This document shows positions 1 to 35,576 of a stretch of 64,000 bases of DNA, one piece after another. A model generated the notes under the pieces. The model made no database searches, was not told the origin of the DNA, and was given only the letters and a program-made list of their open reading frames with translations. The DNA is taken from the NCBI RefSeq assembly GCF_044324785.1, contig NZ_CP172127.1; one strand, 5' to 3'. Both the position numbers and the translations under genes were made by a program. The stretch is from Escherichia coli. GTDB taxonomy: Bacteria; Pseudomonadota; Gammaproteobacteria; Enterobacterales; Enterobacteriaceae. Position 1 is the first letter of the stretch, and every line of letters begins with the position of its first letter.

Positions 1-1038
1 TGCCCATTTTTGAATTCTATTGTATCGAGAGGGCAATGTGAATTTTTTAACTTGTTTGTAACATTCCTTTTGGAATTCTTGCTGATATTTTATTATGTCG
101 TTGTATGAAAGATTGTTTACCCTGGTCTCTAATAATTCTATTATTGTCGAAGCAATTTCCGCTTTTGCTCTTAAAGAGTTGTCATTAATGGTTAATAATG
201 TTGAAAATAAACCATTGATTTGTTTGTCAAGATATTGTTCATCTTTATGTAATTTTGTGATAGGGTATTCCTTATGTGAAAAAATAGTATCAAATAAATT
301 TGCATCAGTGAAGTTTACATTAAGTAGATCTTCGAAATAAAACCTTGACAAGGTTAGAACGAACCCGGACAGATCCTGTCCTGTCATATTGAAATCAATA
401 AAGTTGGTTCCAGCAAAGACTTTCATCTTGTTTTCATTTTCACTGTTCTCAATATACAACCTTATCATTTTTTGGTACAAGCTTTGAATATCTTTTATAT
501 CAGTTGGTAAATCAGTTCGTTGCCCAGAAAAATTTTTATTTTCGGAAGAAACGGTTTGGACACTGAATCTTACTGGTATTCCCTCTTCTACGAGAATTTT
601 AGTTATGATTGGCTTATTGGGCTTAGGATTAAAGACAACAATGATTTTAGATTCAGAGTTTTTATTCTTTTCGTATCTAATGTTATTAATCTGATTAAGT
701 ATTGATTGTGTCTGTTGCGTAAGTGGTGTCGAACTTATCGTTTCAATGTTATTAATAAGACTTACAAGTTGAGCCACAACTTTTGAGTAGTCTGCATTTG
801 TATATGTGGTGTTCGTGTGGCACGCATTAATTTGTTGGAATTGTTGTTGCGCTAAATCAAATTGTTCAGCGTTATATCCTTCTTCAGACAATGAAAAATT
901 AATGGGTTGCTGTTCTTCCTGATTATCACAAGGCCACATCGGTGTGTCTGGTGTTTTAACATTGTCGGTATCTGTTGTGCGGTTATAAATATCGCCGTGA
1001 TATGTATTTATCATACCTGGGGTAAAGTCAATTGACAT
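1..1038 (-). CDS. Partial CDS (N-terminal ~346 codons; 3' end lies beyond the window start) for an AT-rich protein with pentapeptide-like repeats; possibly the yhiS-position gene
   Basis: Reverse-strand frame is open from ATG at 1038 to position 1 with no stop; AGGA-type RBS precedes the ATG; absent from the ORF track because no stop lies in the window; translation contains [19 protein letters not shown]...[10 protein letters not shown] repeats. Confidence 0.55.
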
Positions 1039-1618
1039 AACATTCCTTATTGTTCATCTATTTCGCTAAATTTTTGTAAATCGGAGAATTAGAGCAGGAA
1101 TGGATTTTCTTCTACGCGGAAATAAACACAATGCGTCATATCTTCCTGATATAATTACCTTTAACTTCCCTTTCATTTCCACCCGGTAATATTTGTGTAT
1201 AAAAAAAGGGCAGTGATAGTATCGTAAAGGAAAACGTTAACAACTATCAAAAAGCGCTCATTTTAAAAAGTTATGATGTTCACCGATAGTGTGTGAAGTG
1301 ATATTTTTGTGATGTTTTAGATGTGTAATAATGAACCAGGTTAAAGTGTATTTAAAAATGTGTTGTATTGGCGACTGAAATCTGCCCTTTAAAAGGGGGG
1401 ATAGCACTGAGACAAAGAGACATTGCTTCTCCGATAAAATGTCAGAGAAGCATGATTGCGTGGTGATTGTCGATTGATGACTTACTGACGGATCCGTCAT
1501 CATTCTCAAAGCATTAGTTCAATCATTTGTGATTTTTAAGGATTATCCTGTCTATGATTTTCTACTTAGAAGGATATGGCACTAACTATGCATCTTATAG
1601 TTTACTGTCGGCATCTAT

Positions 1619-2620
1619 TTAAAATAGCATTTGAGTCAAATAGCCCATCAAGATAGCCATACCTAAGATAACCGTCAGGAATGCAACTATCATCGGTATT
1701 CTGAACATTGATTTAAGTAATATCACTTCCGTCAAACTTGCTCCGGCACTGCCGATGATTAATGCCATTAATGCTCCCAGACCCATTCCTTTTGTCATCA
1801 AAACAGATGCCAGAGGGATAATCGCCTCTGCCCGGATATACAGCGGAATTCCGACAACGGCGCTCAATGGGATGGCGAAGGGATTATCTGCCCCTGCATG
1901 AGCGGCAATCCACTCTGAGGGAATAAAGCCATAAATAAAAGAGCCTATTAATACCCCTAACAAAAGATATGGCAGTACATCTTTAAACTGTTGCAACGCA
2001 TCTTTGGTGGCTAGTTTTATGGGATTAATACTTACCACAGCTTTGGTACTGCAACAGTTTACTACAGGTTTCTCAATGGCTTTAGCCGCTGGACTACAGC
2101 AACTCGCTTTTATCGGCGTATATGTCGTCCCCGGCGAAGTTTTGGCTGGAGCACAACAATTTGCTGATGAGCTTTTACTGGCAATGATATGACGTTCAAA
2201 TCCCAGAGAATCCAGGATAATACTGGCAAGTACGGAGACGCCGGCGGCGATAATCGCGTACAACAAGGTAACTTTCCAGCCAAAGGTCACCCACATTAAC
2301 CCGACGATAATGGGATTAAGTAATGGTGAAACAAATAAAAAAGTGAGAGTCGGACCAAACCCGGCTTTCGCTGATAACAATCCACGTAACATGGGGATTG
2401 TCGAGCAACTACAGAACGGGGTAACGGCTCCCAATAGAGCAGCCAGGAGATAGCCTCTCCCTTTTCTGGCCCCCATCATCTGCTGGATTTTATGGTCTGG
2501 CACCTTTTGTCTTATCAGGCTGACACCGGCACTTATCACTATAAACAGCAAAGAAAGCTCGACGGCGAGAAACACAAACATCTCTGCGGCATCTTGCAGC
2601 ATCGCAAGCCAACTACTCAT
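1619..2620 (-). CDS. arsP: ArsP-like (DUF318/YraQ-type) permease, putative organoarsenical efflux permease
   Basis: Multi-pass hydrophobic protein with an exact TPFCSCSxxP motif (TPFCSCSTIP) and a Cys-rich central loop; start chosen at ATG 2620 (GAGG RBS at correct spacing) rather than the ORF-track start at 2632. Confidence 0.6.
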   Translation of the reverse strand: MSSWLAMLQDAAEMFVFLAVELSLLFIVISAGVSLIRQKVPDHKIQQMMGARKGRGYLLAALLGAVTPFCSCSTIPMLRGLLSAKAGFGPTLTFLFVSPLLNPIIVGLMWVTFGWKVTLLYAIIAAGVSVLASIILDSLGFERHIIASKSSSANCCAPAKTSPGTTYTPIKASCCSPAAKAIEKPVVNCCSTKAVVSINPIKLATKDALQQFKDVLPYLLLGVLIGSFIYGFIPSEWIAAHAGADNPFAIPLSAVVGIPLYIRAEAIIPLASVLMTKGMGLGALMALIIGSAGASLTEVILLKSMFRIPMIVAFLTVILGMAILMGYLTQMLF

Positions 2621-2726
2621 ACGTAACCTCATTGAATAAATCTATATTTCCAGAATAATCGAAATGAAATTCAGATCAAGATATTTCTGGTATTATCGAA
2701 ATATCAACCAGACAAAGGGGTGTCAT

Positions 2727-3023
2727 ATGCAGTTGGAAGAAGTTGCTAAAGCGCTGAAAGAGCTAGGTCACCCGACCCGTTTGTTCATATTCAAACACCT
2801 GGTCAAAGCGGGGGAACAAGGTTTGCCGGTCGGTGAGTTGCAAAAGCAGCTTGGGATACCCGGCTCTACACTCAGTCACCATATTTCAGCACTGGTATCG
2901 GTAGGGCTGGTCAAACAAAACCGTGAGAGTCGAACGCTGATGTGTGTTTCGCAATACGCAATGCTGGAAGCGATAATTGAATTCTTACGCGAGGAGTGCT
3001 GCGTAAATAGCAAAATTGCCTGA
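2727..3023 (+). CDS. ArsR/SmtB-family transcriptional regulator, second copy, divergent from the ArsP-like gene
   Basis: HTH region HPTRLFIFKHL...GELQKQLGIPGSTLSHHISALVSVGLV; cysteines are C-terminal (CVSQY, ECC) and the canonical ELCVCDL site is absent; start at internal ATG 2727 with AAAGGGG RBS. Confidence 0.7.
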   Translation: MQLEEVAKALKELGHPTRLFIFKHLVKAGEQGLPVGELQKQLGIPGSTLSHHISALVSVGLVKQNRESRTLMCVSQYAMLEAIIEFLREECCVNSKIA

Positions 3024-3145
3024 TGCGCTACGCGCTACAGATTTCATGCTATGCACGGTTTTGTACGTCGGATAAGACGCGTTAGCGTCGCATCCGACAT
3101 AAACAAAGCGCACTTTACCAACTATGGGCAGTGGATATCGCCGCT

Positions 3146-3571
3146 TTATTTCAACCGTTTACCCGCCTCATCAACCACTTTCTCGCCATCTTCCTTGGTG
3201 AACGCGCCTTGTTGCGCATTTGGCAGAATTTCCAGCACCACTTCTGAAGGGCGGCACAGGCGAGTTCCCAACGGCGTCACCACAATCGGGCGATTAATCA
3301 GAATCGGGTGCTGAAGCATAAAGTCGATTAACCGATCGTCAGTAAATTTATCTTCTGCAAGGCCCAGTTCCTCATACGGCTCGACGTTTTTACGCAACAG
3401 CGCGCGTACGGTAATCCCCATATCGGCAATGAGTTTGACCAGCTCATCGCGCGTTGGCGGTGTTTCCAGATAATAGATAATGGTCGGTTCTGTACCGCTG
3501 TTGCGGATCATCTCCAGCGTATTACGCGACGTACCGCAGGCCGGGTTGTGATAAATGGTAATGTTGCTCAT
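3146..3571 (-). CDS. arsC: Arsenate reductase (glutaredoxin-dependent)
   Basis: 141 aa, MSNITIYHNPACGTSRNTLEMIR..., recognised as E. coli ArsC. Confidence 0.95.
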   Translation of the reverse strand: MSNITIYHNPACGTSRNTLEMIRNSGTEPTIIYYLETPPTRDELVKLIADMGITVRALLRKNVEPYEELGLAEDKFTDDRLIDFMLQHPILINRPIVVTPLGTRLCRPSEVVLEILPNAQQGAFTKEDGEKVVDEAGKRLK

Positions 3572-3583
3572 ATCAATATCTCA

Positions 3584-4873
3584 TTACAAAGTGAAAGAGA
3601 GACGTAGCGCCAGCGCAGCCAGCGTCACAAAAAGCACCGGCAGGGTCATGATAATCCCTGTACGGAAGTAATATCCCCAGCTGATAGTCATATTCTTCTG
3701 CGAAAGAACGTGCAGCCAGAGTAGCGTAGCCAGGCTACCAATTGGGGTAATTTTCGGTCCCAAATCGCAGCCAATCACGTTGGCATAAACCATCGCTTCT
3801 TTGATAACGCCAGATGCCGTGCTGCCATCAATGGACAACGCGCCAACCAGTACCGTCGGCATATTGTTCATAATAGAAGAGAGGAAGGCAGTGAGGAATC
3901 CGGTGCCGAGCGTCGCGGCCCACAGGCCGTTTTCAGCCAGCACGTTGAGTACGCCAGAAAGATATTCCGTTAGTCCGGCATTGCGCAGGCCATAAACCAC
4001 CAGATACATGCCGAGCGAGAAGATGACAATCTGCCAGGGCGCACCGCGCAGGACTTTACCCGTATTAATTGCATGACCGCGTTTAGCGACGGCAAATAAT
4101 ATCAGCGCGCCCACTGCCGCAATGGCGCTTACCGGAATGCCGAGCGGTTCCAGGACGAAAAATCCCACCAGCAGAAGCAGTAAAACAACCCAGCCAGCTT
4201 TGAACGTAGCAGGATCTTTAATCGCTTCTGCGGGAGATTTCAGCAGCGCCATATCGTAGTTCTGCGGAATATCTTTGCGGAAATAGAGATGCAACATCAC
4301 CAGCGTGGCAACAATTGCGGCGATATCCACCGGCACCATCACCGAGGCATATTCGCGAAAGCCGAGGCCAAAGAAATCTGCGGAAACGATATTCACCAGG
4401 TTGGAGACAATAAGCGGCAGGCTGGCGGTATCGGCAATGAATCCGGCCGCCATCACAAACGCCAGCGTCGTGCCTTTACTGAACCCTAAAGCCAGCAGCA
4501 TGGCGATGACAATCGGTGTCAAAATAAGCGCCGCGCCATCATTGGCAAACAGGGCGGCAACGGCAGCACCGAGCAGGACAATCCAGGTAAACAGCAAGCG
4601 ACCGCGTCCATTGCCCCAGCGTGAGACGTGCAGCGCCGCCCACTCAAAAAAGCCGGACTCATCCAGCAGCAGGCTGATGATAATGACGGCAATAAACGCC
4701 GCCGTCGCGTTCCAGACGATATTCCACACCACAGGAATATCACCCGGATGTACCACGCCCGTAACTAACGCCAGTACTGCGCCGAGTGTTGCACTCCAGC
4801 CGATGCCTAAACCTTTCGGCTGCCAGATAACCAATACGATGGTCAGGACAAAGATAGCGCCTGCCAGTAACAT
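3584..4873 (-). CDS. arsB: Arsenite efflux pump
   Basis: 429 aa from [13 protein letters not shown]...; polytopic membrane protein; GGGAGG RBS before ATG 4873. Confidence 0.95.
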
Positions 4874-4927
4874 AATGCCTCCCGGAAAAAACACATGTGC
4901 AAATCCATATGTGTTTAGATAAATTTT

Positions 4928-5281
4928 TTAACTGCAAATGTTCTTACTGTCTTCGGAACAATTTTGTCGAGCCAGGTTGCGGACAATCACCTGAACCTTT
5001 TCCTGTTCGCATCGCCAGGCCTGCTCAATAATTTTCGCGGCCCATGATGGAATATGCGGTGATAAGCGGTAATGAACCCACTTACCCTGCTTGCGATCCA
5101 GCAATAGCCCACTTTCACGCAGCAATGCCAGGTGGCGGGATATCTTGGGCTGCGACTGATCGAGGGCAGTACAGAGATCGCAGACGCATAATTCTCCCAG
5201 CTCGCTGAGCAGTAAAACGATGCCCAGACGGGTTTCATCAGCAAGAATTTTGAACAGTTGGATGGGTAACAGAAATGACAT
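4928..5281 (-). CDS. arsR: Arsenical resistance operon repressor
   Basis: 117 aa with the canonical metal-binding motif ELCVCDL. Confidence 0.95.
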   Translation of the reverse strand: MSFLLPIQLFKILADETRLGIVLLLSELGELCVCDLCTALDQSQPKISRHLALLRESGLLLDRKQGKWVHYRLSPHIPSWAAKIIEQAWRCEQEKVQVIVRNLARQNCSEDSKNICS

Positions 5282-5427
5282 ATTGCGCTCCTGATTGTTG
5301 CAGGTAGTGTCTCTCTTCGAAGCGGATAAGTCAAAAACATATATGGTTTAACGAATGTGTATGTGCAGAGGAAGGTAATAGGTGTGAATTTTGAGTTGGC
5401 TATTCATTTGAAAGGAGGTCTGAATCA

Positions 5428-5525
5428 GGACGTAAAAAAACCGACTTTGCGTCGGTTTTTTACTTCCCAGCCCTGAGTTGGTGGCTCTGGCTGGAGTGAG
5501 AGAGCTCTTATCTAACAGCTCAATA
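5428..5525 (-). ncRNA. agrA: agrA/agrB-type antisense sRNA repeat, copy 1 (which copy is agrA and which is agrB is uncertain)
   Basis: ~95 nt unit repeated at 5663-5762; on the minus strand it ends in a hairpin CCGAC-GCAAA-GTCGG followed by a T-run; unit is near-complementary to the dinQ 5' region at 5919-5953. Confidence 0.45.
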
Positions 5526-5662
5526 CTATTAGCCAGTGGCTAACATTGCAAGAATTAGCGATTTCTTCAGCTGGCGAAGGGACAGTTTGCTATACATGTT
5601 GGTGAAAGAGGATTTATATACTTTCATCGGGTCGCTGCCGTACCAAGCCTTGTCCGAATCCG

Positions 5663-5762
5663 GACGTAAAAAAACCGACTTCGCGTCGGTTTTTTACTTT
5701 CCAGCCCTGAGTTGGTGGCTCTGGTTGGAGTGAGAATGCCATCATCTAACGCATCAATGCTA
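5663..5762 (-). ncRNA. agrB: agrA/agrB-type antisense sRNA repeat, copy 2
   Basis: Second copy of the same unit with the same terminator hairpin; position matches the K-12 arsR-gor intergenic dinQ-agrAB locus. Confidence 0.45.
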
Positions 5763-6023
5763 ATACCATACTGAAACTATTGCAAGGACGTGCTGGTTTT
5801 ATAACCTGCATGTACTGTATGATTATCCAGTTAGCTCTGAGGCATTTTCACTCTGGTAATGCGCATAAACGCTTTCAAAGTCCTGGTCAGAAGTACGGGT
5901 GGTGCCGTTAACTGATGCTCTGGCCGGAGTGAGAGAGTTCTTATCTAACAATGAGACATGCGCCGTGACAGGCAGTGGATGAGTAAGCGGATGCATTCTC
6001 ACTCCATCGCATGGAGAAAACGG

Positions 6024-6107
6024 GTGATTGATAAAGCAATCATCGTTCTTGGGGCGTTAATTGCGCTGCTGGAACTGATCCGCTTTCTGCTTCAGCTTCT
6101 GAACTGA
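6024..6107 (+). CDS. dinQ: DinQ type I toxin peptide (27 aa, GTG start)
   Basis: Translation (V)IDKAIIVLGALIALLELIRFLLQLLN matches the DinQ peptide as I recall it; lies between the agr repeats and gor. Confidence 0.7.
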   Translation: MIDKAIIVLGALIALLELIRFLLQLLN

Positions 6108-6124
6108 TAGCGGAAACGTAACTA

Positions 6125-6153
6125 AGGGCAAAGAGCACACCACTCTTTGCCCT
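6125..6153 (+). terminator. Hairpin after dinQ, possible terminator
   Basis: AGGGCAAAGAG / CTCTTTGCCCT stem followed by TTAACATTT; weak U-tract. Confidence 0.35.
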
Positions 6154-6160
6154 TTAACAT

Positions 6161-7513
6161 TTAACGCATGGTCACGAACTCTTCTGCCGCCGTCGGGTGA
6201 ATGGCGACGGTATTGTCGAAGTCTTTTTTGGTTGCGCCCATCTTCAGCGCCACCGCGAAGCCCTGCAACATTTCATCCATACCAAAACCAATGCCGTGAA
6301 TTCCGACAATCTTCTCTTCCGGTCCAACGCATACCAGTTTCATGCGGCACGGCTGGCGGTGAGTGGTGACTGCGGTATACATCGCGGTGAAAGAGGATTT
6401 ATACACTTTCACCTGATCGTCGCCGTACTGCTCGCGCGCCTGCGGTTCCGTTAAACCAACAGTCCCAATCGGCGGATGGCTGAAGACCACGGTCGGAATG
6501 TTGCTGTAATCCAGATGCTCATCCGGCTTGTTATTAAACAGGCGTTCAGAGAGACGGCGACCCGCTGCAACTGCTACCGGTGTCAGTTCCACTGCCCCCG
6601 TGTTATCGCCCACCGCGTAAATACCTTCAACGTTGGTATTTTGATATTTATCGACGACGATATAGCCTTTTTCGTTAGTTTTAACGCCAGCGGCTTCCAG
6701 GTTGATGTTGTCATTGGCAGGCTCGCGACCAATCGCCCAAATCAGGCAATCTACCGTTTCACTGCGACCATCTTCCAGCTCCAGCGTCAGGCTGCCGTCG
6801 GCATTTTTCACCACCGCTTTCGGGATGGCGTTGGTGTGCAGCTGCGGGCCTTCGGCGTTCATCACTTCGACCAGCGTTTCAGAGATCATCGGGTCGAAGC
6901 TGCGCAGCGGCGCATGTTTACGCACAAACAGATGCGTTTTCGCGCCGAGGCCGTTAATCACGCCCGCCAGTTCAACGGCGATGTAACCCGCGCCAACAAC
7001 CGCTACGCGCTCTGGCAGCGCCGGCAGGGCGAAGAATCCATCAGAATCAATACCGTATTCCACGCCCGGAATATCCGGGTGGCTCGGACGACCGCCGGTG
7101 GCGATCAGAATATGATCGGCCGTGATGGTTTCGCCGTTTACCTCCAGCGTTTTGGCATCAACGAAGCGGGCAAAGCCTTTGATTACATCAACGTTATTTT
7201 TACCGAGCACGTTTTCATAGGAAGTATGAATACGGTCGATATAGGCGATACGGCTGGCGATCAACGTTTCCCAGTTGAATTTATTGATAGTGGTATCGAA
7301 ACCATAATCCGGACCGTACATGTGGATCGCTTCACGGATTTGCGCCGCGTGCCACATCACTTTTTTCGGCACGCAGCCGACGTTCACGCAGGTGCCGCCC
7401 AGTTCTTTGGCTTCAATCAGCGCGCATTTCTGACCGTACATAGCCGCGCGGTTGATGGAGGCGATACCGCCGCTGCCGCCGCCGATGGCGATGTAATCAT
7501 AGTGTTTAGTCAT
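6161..7513 (-). CDS. gor: Glutathione reductase
   Basis: 450 aa, [19 protein letters not shown]..., FAD/NAD-binding GxGxxG motifs, redox-active [10 protein letters not shown]. Confidence 0.97.
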
Positions 7514-7584
7514 GACAGAGTGTCCTTATCGTTGATTACCGCGATTGTAGCGCGAGACGTAATAGGTGCCAGCAATGGCTGCAA

Positions 7585-8427
7585 TTACTCCGGCACGATC
7601 CAGCTTACGGTGGCGTGCCCGGTGCCAGCCGGAACCAGTTTGCTGTGCAGCCACGGCAGCACGTTATTCATCTGCTGTTCCAGTTTCCACGGCGGATTAA
7701 TCACAATCATGCCGGAAGCGGTCATGCCACGGCGATCGCTGTCTGGCAGCACCGCCAGTTCAATTTGCAGAATTTTGCGAATGCCAGTCGCTTCCAGGTC
7801 GTGGATCATGCGCTTAATTTGCTGGCGCAACACCACCGGATACCACAGTGCGTAAGTGCCAGTGGCGAAACGTTTATAGCCTTCTGCTATCCCGCTGACC
7901 ACCGCCTGATAGTCGGTTTTCATTTCATACGGCGGGTCGATAAGGATTAAACCACGGCGGGAAACCGGCGGCAGTTTGGCCTTAAGCTGCTGGAAGCCAT
8001 CGGCTTTTTCGACGCGCGCACGGCTGTCTTTCTGAAATTCAGAACGCAGCAACGGGTAATCGCTCGGGTGCAGTTCGGTCAGTTGCAGGCTGTCCTGTTC
8101 ACGCAGTAGCTGACGAGCAATCAACGGTGAACCGGGGTAGTAACGCAACTGACCGCTACGGTTGAAGTGTTTTACCACATTGATGTACGCCTCCAGCTCC
8201 GCAGGCAAATCGTCCTGCTGCCAGATACGGGCGATACCTTCGAGATATTCGCCGGTACGCTCGGCATGTTCGCTGCCTAACTGATAACGCCCGGCCCCTG
8301 CGTGGGTATCGAGATAGAGAAACGGTTTATCTTTCTCTTTCAGCGACTCGATGATCAGGCTCTGAACGGTATGTTTAAGGACGTCGGCGTGGTTGCCAGC
8401 GTGAAAGCTGTGGCGATAACTGAGCAT
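7585..8427 (-). CDS. rlmJ: 23S rRNA m6A2030 methyltransferase
   Basis: 280 aa from MLSYRHSFHAGNHADVLKH; ATG at 8427 preferred over the ORF-track start at 8478. Confidence 0.9.
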   Translation of the reverse strand: MLSYRHSFHAGNHADVLKHTVQSLIIESLKEKDKPFLYLDTHAGAGRYQLGSEHAERTGEYLEGIARIWQQDDLPAELEAYINVVKHFNRSGQLRYYPGSPLIARQLLREQDSLQLTELHPSDYPLLRSEFQKDSRARVEKADGFQQLKAKLPPVSRRGLILIDPPYEMKTDYQAVVSGIAEGYKRFATGTYALWYPVVLRQQIKRMIHDLEATGIRKILQIELAVLPDSDRRGMTASGMIVINPPWKLEQQMNNVLPWLHSKLVPAGTGHATVSWIVPE

Positions 8428-8629
8428 GGGTAAAGGTGTTCCGGTAAGTAAAAATCGGCCCGTATTCGGGGCGCACAAAAGCCTATCAGGACAGTATACC
8501 GAAAAGAGGCCGCCGCCGCGAAAGCGTAACGTTTCTCATTGAAATTCACTACACTTAACCCCATGCTACAAACATTATGTAAAGCGCCTGTTGAGCGCTT
8601 CCTTAACCTCTTTAACCAGGACTGCGCTA

Positions 8630-10672
8630 ATGACGAATCCGTTACTGACTCCCTTTGAATTGCCTCCGTTTTCTAAAATTCTCCCGGAACATGTCGTTCC
8701 AGCCGTGACTAAGGCGCTGAACGACTGCCGCGAAAATGTGGAGCGCGTAGTAGCGCAAGGGGCACCGTACACCTGGGAAAATCTCTGCCAGCCGTTGGCG
8801 GAAGTGGACGATGTGCTGGGGCGTATCTTCTCCCCGGTCAGCCATCTGAACTCGGTGAAAAATAGCCCGGAACTGCGTGAAGCGTACGAACAAACCCTGC
8901 CGCTGCTGTCAGAATACAGCACCTGGGTAGGGCAACATGAAGGGCTGTATAAAGCATATCGCGACCTGCGCGATGGCGATCATTACGCCACGCTGAACAC
9001 GGCGCAGAAGAAAGCGGTTGATAACGCACTGCGCGACTTTGAACTCTCTGGCATCGGTCTGCCGAAAGAGAAACAGCAACGCTACGGCGAGATTGCCACT
9101 CGTCTTTCTGAGCTGGGCAACCAGTACAGCAACAACGTCCTCGATGCGACAATGGGCTGGACCAAACTCGTTACCGACGAAGCGGAGCTGGCGGGGATGC
9201 CAGAAAGCGCGCTGGCTGCGGCAAAAGCCCAGGCTGAAGCGAAAGAGCTGGAAGGTTATTTGCTGACGCTGGATATCCCAAGCTACTTGCCGGTAATGAC
9301 CTACTGCGACAACCAGGCTCTGCGCGAAGAGATGTATCGTGCTTACAGCACCCGCGCCTCCGATCAAGGCCCGAACGCCGGTAAGTGGGACAACAGCAAG
9401 GTGATGGAAGAGATCCTCGCGCTGCGTCACGAACTGGCGCAACTGCTGGGTTTTGAAAACTACGCCTTTAAATCCCTTGCCACTAAAATGGCAGAAAATC
9501 CGCAGCAGGTGCTTGATTTCTTAACCGATCTGGCAAAACGCGCGCGTCCGCAAGGTGAAAAAGAGCTGGCGCAACTGCGTGCCTTCGCTAAAGCCGAATT
9601 TGGCGTGGATGAGTTGCAGCCGTGGGATATCGCGTACTACAGCGAAAAACAAAAACAGCACCTCTACAGCATCAGTGACGAACAACTGCGTCCGTACTTC
9701 CCGGAAAACAAAGCGGTTAACGGCTTGTTTGAAGTGGTGAAACGTATTTACGGCATCACCGCTAAAGAGCGTAAAGATGTTGATGTCTGGCATCCGGATG
9801 TACGTTTCTTCGAGCTGTATGACGAGAACAACGAACTGCGCGGCAGCTTCTACCTCGACCTGTATGCCCGTGAAAACAAGCGCGGCGGGGCGTGGATGGA
9901 TGACTGCGTAGGCCAGATGCGTAAAGCCGACGGTTCGCTGCAAAAACCGGTCGCGTATCTGACCTGTAACTTCAACCGCCCGGTAAATGGTAAACCGGCG
10001 CTGTTCACTCACGACGAAGTGATCACCCTGTTCCACGAGTTCGGTCACGGCCTGCACCATATGCTGACCCGCATCGAAACCGCCGGTGTTTCCGGTATCA
10101 GCGGTGTGCCGTGGGATGCGGTCGAACTGCCGAGTCAGTTTATGGAAAACTGGTGCTGGGAGCCGGAGGCGCTGGCGTTTATCTCTGGTCACTACGAAAC
10201 CGGCGAACCGCTGCCGAAAGAGTTGCTGGATAAAATGCTGGCGGCGAAGAACTACCAGGCGGCGCTGTTTATTCTGCGCCAGCTGGAGTTCGGCCTGTTC
10301 GATTTCCGCCTCCATGCCGAGTTCCGCCCGGATCAGGGGGCGAAAATCCTCGAAACCCTGGCAGAAATCAAGAAACTGGTTGCCGTGGTACCGTCTCCGT
10401 CATGGGGCCGTTTCCCGCACGCTTTCAGCCATATTTTCGCCGGTGGTTATGCGGCAGGTTACTACAGCTACCTGTGGGCCGACGTGCTGGCGGCAGATGC
10501 CTTCTCGCGTTTTGAGGAAGAGGGCATTTTCAATCGTGAAACCGGACAGTCGTTCCTCGACAACATTCTGAGCCGTGGCGGTTCAGAAGAGCCGATGGAT
10601 CTGTTCAAACGCTTCCGTGGTCGTGAACCACAGCTGGATGCGATGCTGGAGCATTACGGCATTAAGGGCTGA
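8630..10672 (+). CDS. prlC: Oligopeptidase A (M3 family zinc metallopeptidase)
   Basis: 680 aa from [17 protein letters not shown]; HEFGH zinc-binding motif present. Confidence 0.95.
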
Positions 10673-10679
10673 TCATTCA

Positions 10680-11432
10680 GTGAAAATCTGCTTAATTGAT
10701 GAAACAGGCACCGGAGACGGTGCCTTATCTGTTCTGGCGGCCCGCTGGGGGCTGGAGCACGATGAAGACAACCTGATGGCGCTGGTGTTAACACCGGAGC
10801 ATCTGGAACTGCGCAAGCGTGATGAGCCAAAACTTGGTGGCATCTTTGTTGATTTTGTTGGCGGAGCGATGGCGCACCGACGCAAATTCGGCGGTGGTCG
10901 CGGTGAGGCGGTGGCAAAAGCGGTGGGCATTAAAGGCGATTATCTCCCGGACGTGGTGGACGCCACCGCAGGACTGGGGCGCGATGCCTTTGTGCTGGCT
11001 TCGGTCGGCTGCCGCGTGCGGATGCTGGAGCGTAATCCGGTGGTTGCTGCATTGCTCGACGATGGCCTGACGCGTGGTTATGCGGATGCGGAAATCGGCG
11101 GCTGGTTGCAGGAGCGGTTGCAGTTAATTCACGCTTCCAGCCTGACGGCGCTGACCGATATTACTCCGCGCCCGCAGGTGGTCTATCTCGATCCGATGTT
11201 CCCGCATAAGCAGAAAAGCGCGCTGGTGAAAAAAGAGATGCGTGTCTTTCAGTCGCTGGTGGGGCCGGATCTTGATGCCGATGGATTACTGGAGCCTGCA
11301 CGCTTGCTGGCGACCAAACGCGTGGTGGTAAAGCGCCCGGACTACGCGCCACCGCTGGCGAATGTCGCCACGCCAAACGCGGTTGTCACCAAAGGGCATC
11401 GCTTTGATATTTATGCAGGTACGCCGGTGTAA
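10680..11432 (+). CDS. rsmJ: 16S rRNA m2G1516 methyltransferase
   Basis: 250 aa from GTG at 10680 ([14 protein letters not shown]); the ORF-track start at 10575 would overlap prlC and is rejected. Confidence 0.85.
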
Positions 11433-31240: not shown

Positions 31241-34200
31241 CTATCTTTTTTTATCGTTTGACTGTCTGGAGTGACGACAATTCCAGGCTTTCTGTGTGCT
31301 TTTTGCATCTTTAGCACTAATATCACCACAATCAATTAGTTCCTGAAGTACGTCACATCTGTCGGGTTTTTTCCCATCACTCCAGAATCTGTCATTTATT
31401 ATGTCATTGACACGATCAGTTATCCCTGTGTCTGCAACATTTCCACGAGAAGCTATCATTGTTATATCTAATGCTAGTCCCGGATTATTCAATATTAGAG
31501 AGTCAAATATTCTTTGTGATGCTGTATCGTTCCACCATTTTGTCAATGCTTTTGCAGCATTATCATCTGCTTGCTGCTGTGCAGGGCTTTTGGGCCATGG
31601 AATTGGCAAGGGGAATGGTCTAGGAAAAACTTCTAACCCCAGAGGATCTGTATTCGTAACTGGATTCAACGGATACTGATAAAAATTCCATCCGCCCTTC
31701 AGCCCAATCGGATCCTGAGTGATATACCGCCCCTGCAGCGGGTCATAATAGCGGTGGCGGTTGTAATACAGGCCGGACTCCTCATCATACTGCTGACCCG
31801 GCAGGCGGATGGGCTGCTGCAGTTGATGCGGGTTCTCTTCATTCAGCAGGTTGCCCCACTCATCGTATTCTGCGCACCATTCTGTTGCCCCTTCCGTGCT
31901 GACAAGCGCCAGCGGCAGGCCGCGATGGTCGCAGTGGTACAGGTGGATTTTTCGCGCCGGCGTGTACACCGGGTCCATCTGGTTTTGTATCTGCTCCACC
32001 GTCAGGCCGCACGATGCCAGCCAGCGGCGGCTTTCCTCACTCACCCGGTCAGCCAGGATTTCACTTTCCAGCCGGTCGAGCATCTGCACCAGCACCGGCG
32101 GGAACACCACACTGCCACCGTCTTCACCGCCGGACTGCTGAAGCGCATCCGCCAGGCTGCGGCGCTGCGTTTTCGCCAGCTCACCGGTGGCGGTTTCGAC
32201 CCTGATGAGTGGCGTGAAGCTCCCCGGCTGATAAACCGTCTGGATGCGGGTTCTGTCGTTCTGTATCGTGGTCAGCCGGTCGCCGTCCCAGCCGTACCAG
32301 GTCACTTCCGGTTTCCGTGACAGCGACATCCAGCCCGTCAGGTCCCGTTCACGCCGCCACACCCGTTTTGCCACCCTGCGGCCCAGCGGGTCGTAAAGAT
32401 AGCGACTTTCGACCAGCGGCTCTGCATATTGTGTCCGCGTGTAGTGCACCAGCCGGTGCCGGCTGTCGTAATGATACCGGTGAGTCCGCTCATCATCCGT
32501 GCGGATAACCCCTTCCGGGCTGAGGTCGGTTTTCTCCGTCAGCCTGCCGTGACGGTCATACCGGTAAAGATAGTGCGCGTCACGGGCGATACGGTTATCC
32601 GGCCATGCGCTGAGGGGGCTGTCCGGGTGCAGCTCCGGGTCGGGCAGGCGGTTGCCCGCCGGGTCCGTGGCATACGGGATGCGGATATCAAGGTTCGCTG
32701 CCGTGGTGTGGACGCCGGTCAGCCTGCCGGTGTCGCTGTAGCTGTAACTCCGGGTCTGGCGCGGGCTGCTGATGCGGATGAGTTCGCCGTTGTCGTTCCA
32801 GGTGTAATCGCGGTCATACTGCAGGCTGTTCAGGTGCTGGCTCTGTAACTGCCCGGCAGGGGTGTAAGCGGTGGTGAGTTCATAACGGCCGAAGCTGCGC
32901 AGCGTTTCCCGGTGCAGGCGGTCGCGGGTGAAATCCACCAGCGGTGTGTCGCCGAGTTTCATGCCTGACAGCCAGCCGCTGCCGTAGGTCAGCCATTCCA
33001 CGGCGGGCAGGCTGTCCGGTATACAGCGGTTCGCCAGTCCCTGCGCGTTGTAAGCGTGTCTGGTTTCATGCTGCCAGAGCAGTGCTTCCGTCTGCAGGTG
33101 ATGCACCGTCTGGCGCTCACCGGTCAGGCGGCCTTTCTCATCATACCCGTAATGCACCGTCACCCGGTGGCCTTCGCTGAGATGGCTGATGCCTGTCAGC
33201 CAGCCGCGTTCGTCATACTGCCACTGCTCTGCAGGTTCACCCTTCACGGTACGCTGCGTGATGCGGTCTGCTTCGTCATAGTGCCAGTGGGTGACCAGCC
33301 CCTCATCCTCGCTGCGGATAAGTTTGCCGGTCAGGTCGTGGTGATAACGCTGTGTGCGGCCGTCAAAGCCGGTTTCCTGTATCAGACGGTCAAGTACATC
33401 GTAACGGAAGGTGGTGTGGCTGCCGTTTTCACTGGTCAGGCGGATGACCCGTCCGGCAGCATCGTATTCCATACTGCGCGTCAGACCACCCTGCGTGGTA
33501 CGGATGGCCTTTCCCCACGTATCGTACTGTGTCCCGTTTCTGCTGCCGTCCGGGGCAATGACGGCGGTCAGGTCACCGGCGGCGTTGTATTCATACCGCG
33601 TTTCATGGCCCTGCATGTCTTTCACCGCAATTAACTGTCCACGGCTGTCGTATGCGCGGTACTGGCTCAGGCCTTCCTCGCGGTGCACCGCCGTCACCTG
33701 ACCAAAACGGTCATGGTCATAACGGGTTACATAACCGGAACAGTCAGTGACGGTCAGCAACTGACCGTAACGGCTCCATGTCATGGTTTTCCGGCTGCCG
33801 GTGGCATCTTCCGTTGCGCAGGGTAAGTCACTGTGTGGATTATCATAACGGTAGCGGGTGATATCGCCGTTGTGTGCGGTTTCCTGAATCAGACGGCCGG
33901 ATTCATCATATTCCCGGCGCAACTCCAGCCCGTCAGTCCCGGTGGCTGACGTTAACTGGTTGTGGTGGTTATAGTAAAACGCCGATGCCCTGCCATCCGG
34001 TGTGGTGATGCGCGTGATGAGTCCCGTCACCACATCCGGGCTGTACTCAGTCGTCCGGCCTGCGGCATCCGTCTGTGCCTTAAGCCTGCCCACCGCGTCA
34101 AACTGACTCTGCGTGACGCTGCCGTCCGCGTGTTCCTTTTTCACCACCCGCTTCAGCCCGCCTTCGCCCTGCGTGTGCAGGACTTCACGGCGGTCCAGGC

Positions 34201-35374
34201 TGTCGGTGATGGTGATGTGGTCTTTCTCATACTGATACGTGTAGCTTAAGCCTGCCGGGTTTAGCTGTTCTGTCACCCGCCCGTCACTGTCGTAACGGTA
34301 ACGGATTTCCGGCCGGCCCGTGTGACGGTGCGCCACCATCCGGCCCCGGTATTTATCATCGTAAGTAAAGCTGCGCACCTGTGTGCCGCTGCGGTCATAC
34401 ACCGCCGCCAGTTCGCCGCGTGGCGTCCAGCCATAGCGTACCAGCGGCGCGGCTGGCAGGTTGTCCGGATATTCCGGGTCGTGCGTCAGCCACACGGCAG
34501 ACAGACGGATGCCGTTGTCCCGGCCATATTCGGTGTAACCCGGCAGGGTATCAGGAAAAGCGGACGGTTCCGCCCCGCCGGAAATGGCCTGCTGCCGGGC
34601 CTCTTCTGCCCGCTGCGCCTGCGTGGTCAGTACCAGCCGGAAGTGACGCCCGGCACCATCCGTCACGCCGGTGATTTCGCCGCTGAATTCGCCGCCAGCC
34701 TCACGGTGGAACGTCTGTGTGCGCCCGAAGCGGTCCACCAGCCCGGTCAGTACCCGGTACGGCGGCAGCGGCGCGGGCAGCACCTCATCCGCCTCCGGCA
34801 CCCGCTCACACCAGCCGAGTACCCACCACGGCCCCTGCGGACTGTTTGTCGCCAGATAACGATGCGGACTCAGGCGAAGCTCTTCCGGCAGCGCCTGCCA
34901 GAGTGCGGCCAGCCGGTGACCTTCATCCAGTTTCGCCATGCCGCCGCGCACCAGCCAGAGTGACTCGCTGCGGCTGTAACCGTCCTCACCGGGAAACAGG
35001 TGCTCAAAATACAGGCTTCTGCCGCCGTTATCACTGAGTATCAGTGTGTTATCGCGCAGCTGTAAGCGGATATCCGCAGGCATTTTCCAGCCGGGGCCGA
35101 GGCTCCCCACCGGCGCGGGCGTTTTTGTCCGGTAACTGCTGTAGGTGCGGGAGAGGATGAACGGCAGCGGGCCGGGCAGGGCAAGGTCGGTTTCTCCGGG
35201 AAGGACCTTCGCACCGAGCAGCGGATTGACCGGATGGCCGGACGTCACCCCGCCGGGGCACACCGAACAGGCCACACCGGTGGGGGCACCGATGCGCACC
35301 CCGGCAGAACCCTGAACAATGCTACCGCCATACTGCGTCATGTCGCCCTGACGCGCCGCCGGTTTTCCGCTCAT
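31241..35374 (-). CDS. rhsB: Rhs-family YD-repeat polymorphic toxin; symbol assigned by synteny (nikR-adjacent locus) only
   Basis: 1377 aa; many YD repeats (RYRYD, YTYQYE, YDxxGR); conserved core end PxxxxDPLGL at ~31634; GC-rich core with an AT-rich C-terminal tip (31241-31633). Confidence 0.9.
31660..32092. repeat. Direct repeat of the Rhs core 3' end (main copy); partner at 29897-30336
   Basis: See partner repeat. Confidence 0.85.
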
Positions 35375-35576
35375 CGTAAAATCCTTTTCTATTATTTTAA
35401 TGACAGTATCTTCATACGAAAAAGCGAAGAAAAACTTGTGGTCACAATGAATTGAAGATTTTTAGGAATATATTTAGAACGTTACAAAAGAGAAGGTTCG
35501 GATAGGGTATTTAGAGAGGAATCAGGTGTGCTAGTGGCCCTTTGTTGATCGTTCACCAAAGGACCCAATAATAGGC

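Follow-up and report, generated by a model that had tools for sequence, protein, structure and literature searches.

The C-terminal toxin domain Ntox34 was described by Zhang et al. (2012) as all-alpha, with the motifs GNxxD, K, C, C, K and WxCxH; it is carried on Rhs proteins, with export through T2SS or T6SS, and its immunity partner is Imm-HEAT. The work of Vlazny & Hill (1995), as reported by Poole et al. (2011), indicated that RhsA's C-terminal region, expressed alone, keeps cells in stationary phase from recovering, and that yibA neutralises this effect. K-12 yibA::Tn5 mutants are viable, and are more readily killed by nalidixic acid, mitomycin C, H2O2, UV and SDS. In Neisseria cinerea, the PAAR-Rhs-Ntox34 protein Nte2 lowers viability when it is made in the cytoplasm of E. 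coli, and the product of the adjacent gene, Nti2, rescues the cells. Reviews class the Rhs-CT proteins of E. coli as PAAR-Rhs and also describe 'neighbourless' Rhs genes, i.e. those without linked type VI genes.

The locus analysed here lies in a 64-kb stretch of E. coli DNA (the window). It is, with high confidence, an E. coli RhsA-type polymorphic toxin cassette, composed of a YD-repeat core, a linker with an Ntox34 tip, and the immunity gene yibA. The locus is real but ordinary, because its tail has long been known as RhsA's toxic C-terminus and YibA is the known antidote. Its sequence, its family, its toxin-immunity phenotype and the structure of the immunity protein are already public.

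When compared with rhsA of K-12 MG1655 (b3593), the tip is identical at 130 of 130 residues, as are all of the last ~175 residues (100%), and the whole Rhs protein shows 96.3% amino acid identity. The DNA of the tail and yibA is 99.7% identical, and YibA differs from that of K-12 (b3594) in one residue, K169T. Both loci have the same gene order, with rhs, a spacer of 20 nt from the rhs stop to the yibA start, yibA, an orphan rhs fragment and a Sel1/YibG-like gene. The site differs, given that the K-12 rhsA lies between yibF and yibH, whereas the element studied here lies between nikR and yhhJ, the position of rhsB in K-12. Moreover, the orphan tip is intact here, unlike the yibJ pseudogene arrangement of K-12. 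With the Ntox34/Imm-HEAT pair of Zhang et al. (2012) the locus shares the HMM, the motifs, the predicted helical fold, the Rhs carrier and the HEAT neighbour, and no difference was found; the tip belongs to the E. coli group at the centre of family PF15606. Nte2/Nti2 has the same toxin family, an Rhs carrier and an adjacent neutralising immunity gene, and the Ntox34 domains of Neisseria are 58-65% identical to the tip. The strain that makes Nte2 has a demonstrated type VI system, whereas the window has no type VI gene.

Two published primers, rhsAF and rhsA1R, have exact matches in the window (32385-32404 and 31605-31624, respectively) and predict the reported product of 800 bp. They were published for the EDL933 locus z5014 (2001 genome) and for rhsA of E. 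coli HB101. The z5014 tip has been described as PF15606, and has been judged absent from the real EDL933, in which the orphan tip downstream has become joined to rhsA. A review equates z5014 with the Rhs-CT5 of Ma et al., yet labels it 'Toxin_55'.

The Rhs protein and its C-terminal tail

The features of the locus are collected in Table 1. The RHS_core equivalog of NCBIfam scores 2620 bits against the Rhs protein (cutoff 2000) and spans aa 1-1247; it stops at the same residue as the Rhs_assc_core profile (aa 1170-1247). YD repeats were matched, with multiple RHS_repeat matches in Pfam. At the N-terminus, the residues KPAARQGD are present at aa 4-11; the Pfam PAAR_motif gives no match there even at E <= 10, and DUF6531 (aa 46-123, E = 1.4e-17) is the sole N-terminal match.

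Table 1. Positions of the features of the rhs-yibA locus in the window.
Feature	Position	Strand	Basis
Rhs gene, RhsA type, intact 1377-aa ORF	31241..35374	(-)	ORF, NCBIfam and comparison with K-12
Rhs N-terminal region, aa 1-123	35006..35374	(-)	KPAARQGD at aa 4-11, DUF6531 at aa 46-123
PxxxxDPLGL demarcation motif, aa 1238-1247, end of the conserved core	31634..31663	(-)	Read from sequence
Pre-toxin linker module, tip residues 1-50	31484..31633	(-)	Recurrence before other domains
Ntox34 toxin domain, tip residues 51-125	31259..31483	(-)	Pfam PF15606
yibA, 280-aa HEAT-repeat immunity protein	30378..31220	(-)	1OYZ identity, PRK09687, HEAT_2
GGAGG ribosome-binding site of yibA	31229..31233	(-)	8 nt upstream of ATG 31220
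Orphan rhs fragment: ~430 bp of core 3' end, DPFGL, different 169-aa tip	29371..30336	(-)	RHS_core profile
Sel1-repeat gene, YibG-like	28878..29357	(-)	'sel1 repeat family protein' at the equivalent position of N3
ISAs1-family (H-repeat) transposase fragment, end of the Rhs element	28114..28485	(-)	NCBIfam transpos_ISAs1

The DPLGL residues are aa 1243-1247 of the Rhs protein and the proline of the demarcation motif is P1238. A first-pass annotation, made from the sequence alone, had placed a 130-aa AT-rich tail after this motif, at 31241-31633, and had noted a sharp drop in GC from the core to the tip and the immunity gene. Both observations were borne out. The tail has exactly 130 aa, coded by 31244-31633 and followed by the stop codon at 31241-31243, and the GC content, which is 0.621 in the core, falls to 0.402 for the tail and 0.339 for the gene downstream, the value for the whole window being 0.514. 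When calculated over 300 nt at a time, the fall begins at ~31650-31700, at the DPLGL codons.

The same annotation left the tail in an unassigned family, and this was wrong. Pfam PF15606 (Ntox34, 'Bacterial toxin 34') matches the tail over positions 1-80 of the 80 in the model, with E = 8.1e-44 and 148.1 bits, its name in RefSeq is 'polymorphic toxin type 34 domain-containing protein', and all of its residues are those of K-12 RhsA. Membership of a known toxin family had been named beforehand as counting against the annotation, and as far as the family assignment is concerned Ntox34 is such a family. The whole signature of the family is found in the tip: GNxxD (G64, N65, D68), C93, K115 and WxCxH (W117, C119, H121). 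In an alignment of 18 toxin domains, N65, T113, K115, C119 and S122 are invariant and G64, D68, C93, L96, A116, W117 and R123 nearly so; the His of WxCxH (H121) varies among the relatives. Since only 41 relatives were found at E <= 0.001 among 1.84 billion representative proteins, the Ntox34 family is small. PADLOC gave no match to the tip.

Ntox34 does not include the opening ~50 residues of the tail. The same stretch of ~40-60 aa also precedes unrelated C-terminal domains in other proteins (P0013, P0019, P0022 and P0024), and the tip can therefore be described as bipartite, with a shared linker and the toxin proper. Structure prediction, which had been suggested as a check on the tip, gave an AlphaFold2 model composed of helices only. 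Those of the toxin domain span tip residues 69-86, 92-102 and 107-116, with a block-mean pLDDT of 92-97 across residues 71-120, and helices are also predicted in the linker (block-mean pLDDT 68-86). The Ntox34 domain is thus predicted to be an all-alpha domain of ~75 aa with three helices. A fold search with the confident model of the toxin domain found structural relatives only inside its own family. Searches of the PDB remained at chance level, both with the single sequence of the tip (best E = 0.74) and with its profile (best E = 0.019, the pilin ComGC).

YibA as the partner of Ntox34

The protein coded directly downstream is identical at 279 of 280 residues to chain A of PDB 1OYZ, 'hypothetical protein YibA'. 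It scores 465 bits with the NCBIfam equivalog PRK09687 (cutoff 275), and HEAT_2 of Pfam matches it three times at E <= 8e-6, the best at E = 3e-8. In RefSeq the gene is 'yibA: HEAT repeat domain-containing protein', with a length of 843 nt. The HEAT/ARM-like protein of 285 aa that had been noted at this place holds as to its ORF (30378-31235, from the ATG at 31235) and its repeats, and its length needs correction. The most likely start is ATG 31220, giving a product of 280 aa, not 285, because ATG 31235 overlaps the ribosome-binding site of ATG 31220; the crystallised protein also has 280 aa. YibA has no hydrophobic N-terminus (Kyte-Doolittle maximum of -0.09 with an 11-residue window over the first 45 aa), in agreement with the earlier claim that a signal peptide is absent, and this fits a cytoplasmic location.

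The proposal that this HEAT protein is the cytoplasmic immunity partner of the tip finds support in its identity with YibA, in the Imm-HEAT pairing and in the published neutralisation. Six distant relatives of Ntox34 were looked up, their listed identities being 28-49% across the part that matched. A YibA-like HEAT gene lies directly downstream of Ntox34 in all five of the loci where the downstream gene can be read, the contig of the sixth stopping too early to show it. The YibA-like proteins of these five loci score 16-67 bits against YibA, and the carriers are an Rhs protein of 2102 aa, short fragments of Rhs C-termini and an eCIS_core protein. The linkage at distant loci therefore gives independent support for the toxin-immunity pairing. 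Charge complementarity between toxin and immunity protein was also considered as an argument for nucleic-acid mimicry, and was dropped as inconsistent across pairs.

Mode of action and biological role

By what is established for Rhs proteins in general, the YD-repeat core would enclose the tip as a shell, and the protease activity of the core itself would cut off the tip between DPLGL and the following E. The Rhs protein may be delivered into neighbouring cells on the spike of a type VI secretion system whose genes lie elsewhere in the genome. There, the basic Ntox34 domain, a predicted RNase, might halt growth by acting on nucleic acid, a step with about an even chance of being correct, and the producer would be protected through one-to-one binding of YibA to the toxin domain. 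No type VI gene (vgrG, Eag chaperone or other) occurs among the ORFs of the window, and none in the corresponding annotated region of strain N3. Because of this, and because the N-terminus has no PAAR_motif match, delivery from the rhs locus is putative.

Nucleic acid is the best guess for the target of Ntox34, at a probability that we put no higher than roughly even, because the C-terminal segment KAWxCRxSRxSKD is conserved and strongly basic. The last 26 residues of the tip, which include this segment, carry a charge of +5.8 at pH 7, which would fit phosphate binding, and databases and reviews annotate the domain as a predicted RNase or nuclease. The labels of secondary sources conflict, however, given that Ntox34 appears as a predicted RNase, as a DNase, or in lists of nuclease domains. 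Neither an enzymatic assay of Ntox34 nor primary biochemical evidence of nuclease activity was found in the accessible literature, where 'RNase' comes from a database description and from secondary citations. It is possible, though we do not favour it, that Ntox34 is not a nuclease and acts by another route, for instance by binding an essential protein and blocking it, or by a Cys-dependent modification. The domain has merely ~65-75 aa, fold searches give no known relative and sequence searches no solved relative, and the five invariant residues, with C93 and R123 nearly so, are accompanied by no conserved His. Against this reading, certain RNase toxins, those of the RelE family, function without His.

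It seems rather unlikely that Ntox34 will turn out to be a toxin of ~70 aa with a fold unlike that of any solved or annotated protein, for which the label 'RNase' is wrong and whose mechanism is new to polymorphic toxins; in that case, no HEAT-solenoid immunity protein before YibA would have had its mode of inhibition defined. The question of mechanism belongs to the whole named Ntox34 family and not to the rhs-yibA locus in particular. This historic Rhs toxin is of interest in that a confident model has no fold relatives outside its own family, and the activity label is that of a predicted RNase.

The main rival to a role as a weapon against neighbours is an intracellular one, in which the rhs tip and yibA would form mainly a toxin-antitoxin-like module for survival in stationary phase or under stress. 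This role has some support, and we consider it improbable. The sole phenotype reported for the exact tip is the intracellular block in stationary phase that yibA relieves, and the stress hypersensitivity of K-12 yibA::Tn5 agrees with it, as does the lack of type VI genes in the window. Rhs elements of Salmonella have also been reported, in PMC7043789, as type II toxin-antitoxin modules. However, the 1995 phenotype was obtained with the C-terminal region by itself, according to Poole et al. (2011), and a fused Rhs core of 1247 aa would be purposeless in a plain toxin-antitoxin pair. Furthermore, the Ntox34 of Neisseria rides a PAAR-Rhs type VI effector, and the distant relatives are found on other export carriers, among them the 2102-aa Rhs protein and the eCIS_core protein.

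The chance is far smaller that the tip and yibA no longer function and are a remnant in decay, carried along at a rearrangement hot spot. K-12 and related laboratory strains are not known to have a type VI system, which would agree with such decay. BL21 retains only a truncated gene of 873 bp with the Ntox34 tip, and IS fragments occur on the flanks of the element. Against this, the ORF and the tip are intact, the tip being identical to that of K-12, and yibA has a good ribosome-binding site. The tail and the downstream gene were also found, in a DNA search at >= 80% coverage of both, in 1756 of 5426 complete E. coli genomes, mostly at >= 99% identity. In addition, there are experimental reports of both the toxicity and the protection.

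Genomic context and exchange of the tip

The rhs element is bordered by nikABCDER on one side and by yhhJ-rbbA-yhiI on the other. It occupies the rhsB position and yet carries an rhsA-type set, composed of the Ntox34 tip, yibA, the orphan rhs fragment, the Sel1-repeat gene, and IS630 and ISAs1 fragments. Among complete genomes, that of E. coli N3 is the closest (99.1% identity) and has the same arrangement. The match to transpos_ISAs1 (E = 5e-38) covers only positions 1-102 of the 314 in the profile, and its counterpart in N3 is a partial pseudogene.

The core remnant of the orphan fragment is ~99% identical to the 3' core of the main gene over ~430 bp and matches RHS_core positions 1111-1261. 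This length and identity are enough for recombination that would delete Ntox34-yibA and join the core to the orphan tip; through homologous recombination, the shared core could thus let the cassette be removed and the orphan tip be installed in its place. The fusion of rhsA to the orphan tip, the expected product of such a deletion, has been described for the rhsA locus in O157:H7 EDL933. For the 169-aa orphan tip, Pfam, NCBIfam and PADLOC gave no family and the PDB no relative by sequence; the Sel1-repeat gene is presumed to be the partner of this tip.

The low-GC tip and the immunity gene are a swappable cassette. The idea of a swapped toxin cassette, which the first-pass annotation had drawn from the drop in GC, is strengthened by the orphan ~430 bp of core and by other strains that have a different tip at the site. 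With an RhsA-type cassette at the rhsB site, and sister strains in which the tip was displaced and yibA kept, the locus offers a clean natural example of tip displacement with retention of the immunity gene. In strain 746, the nikR-linked Rhs protein has a different tip, and yibA persists 3 kb downstream, with several other immunity genes in front of it.

Linker and tip of the Rhs element

The linker of the main tip is common to the proteins P0013, P0019, P0022 and P0024, whose C-terminal domains are unrelated. The linker is a module of its own, which separates the toxin from the Rhs core.

The position occupied by the Rhs element of the window (28000-35500) is the rhsB site of Escherichia coli K-12, which extends from nikR to yhhJ. 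Despite this location, comparison with K-12 indicates that the tip, the immunity gene and the orphan set of the element are all of the rhsA type. In strain 746, a different tip is found at the nikR-yhhJ site, whereas the window has the rhsA-type tip there. Moreover, strain 746 retains yibA, the HEAT-repeat immunity gene of the main tip, as an orphan immunity gene behind the NTF2-fold, DUF6258 and pentapeptide-repeat genes. Truncated transposase fragments are located at the distal end of the element (see table).

Features of the Rhs element, with positions in the window
Feature	Coordinates	Strand	Description
Linker, main tip residues 1-50	31484-31633	-	Proline-rich and helical
Orphan tip, from the rhs fragment at 29371-30336	29371-29880	-	169 aa after DPFGL, ending ...SDIK
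Sel1-repeat protein gene, after the orphan tip	28878-29357	-	Presumed immunity protein
Truncated transposase fragments, ISAs1 (H-repeat) and IS630	28114-28812	-	Distal end of the Rhs element, adjoining yhhJ

The orphan tip and its Sel1-repeat partner

The main tip is assigned to a family, Ntox34; in contrast, the orphan tip is truly without family assignment. Pfam, NCBIfam and PADLOC gave no family match for it, and the PDB holds no protein related to it in sequence. The tip contains a GGHG motif, followed about 45 residues further on by FSCG, and these motifs could form a His/Cys catalytic pair.

The N-terminus of the adjacent Sel1-repeat protein (MKRFLFILIANIFFFSCG) looks like a lipoprotein-type signal peptide, and the presumed immunity protein may therefore be exported. 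If this is the case, the periplasm would be the site of action of the orphan toxin.

Comparison with strain N3

The nik operon region shows 99.1% identity to strain N3, versus 97.7% to the best other complete E. coli genome (35300-41000, 28000-35500). The window probably belongs to a somewhat divergent Escherichia lineage, near N3. Over approximately positions 1-11000, colinearity with N3 is lost upstream of prlC: strain N3 has additional genes between rlmJ and prlC, one for a member of the YwqG family and one for a hypothetical protein, for which the ORF spacing of the window leaves no room. The position of gorA is shifted by about 1.7 kb between the window and N3.
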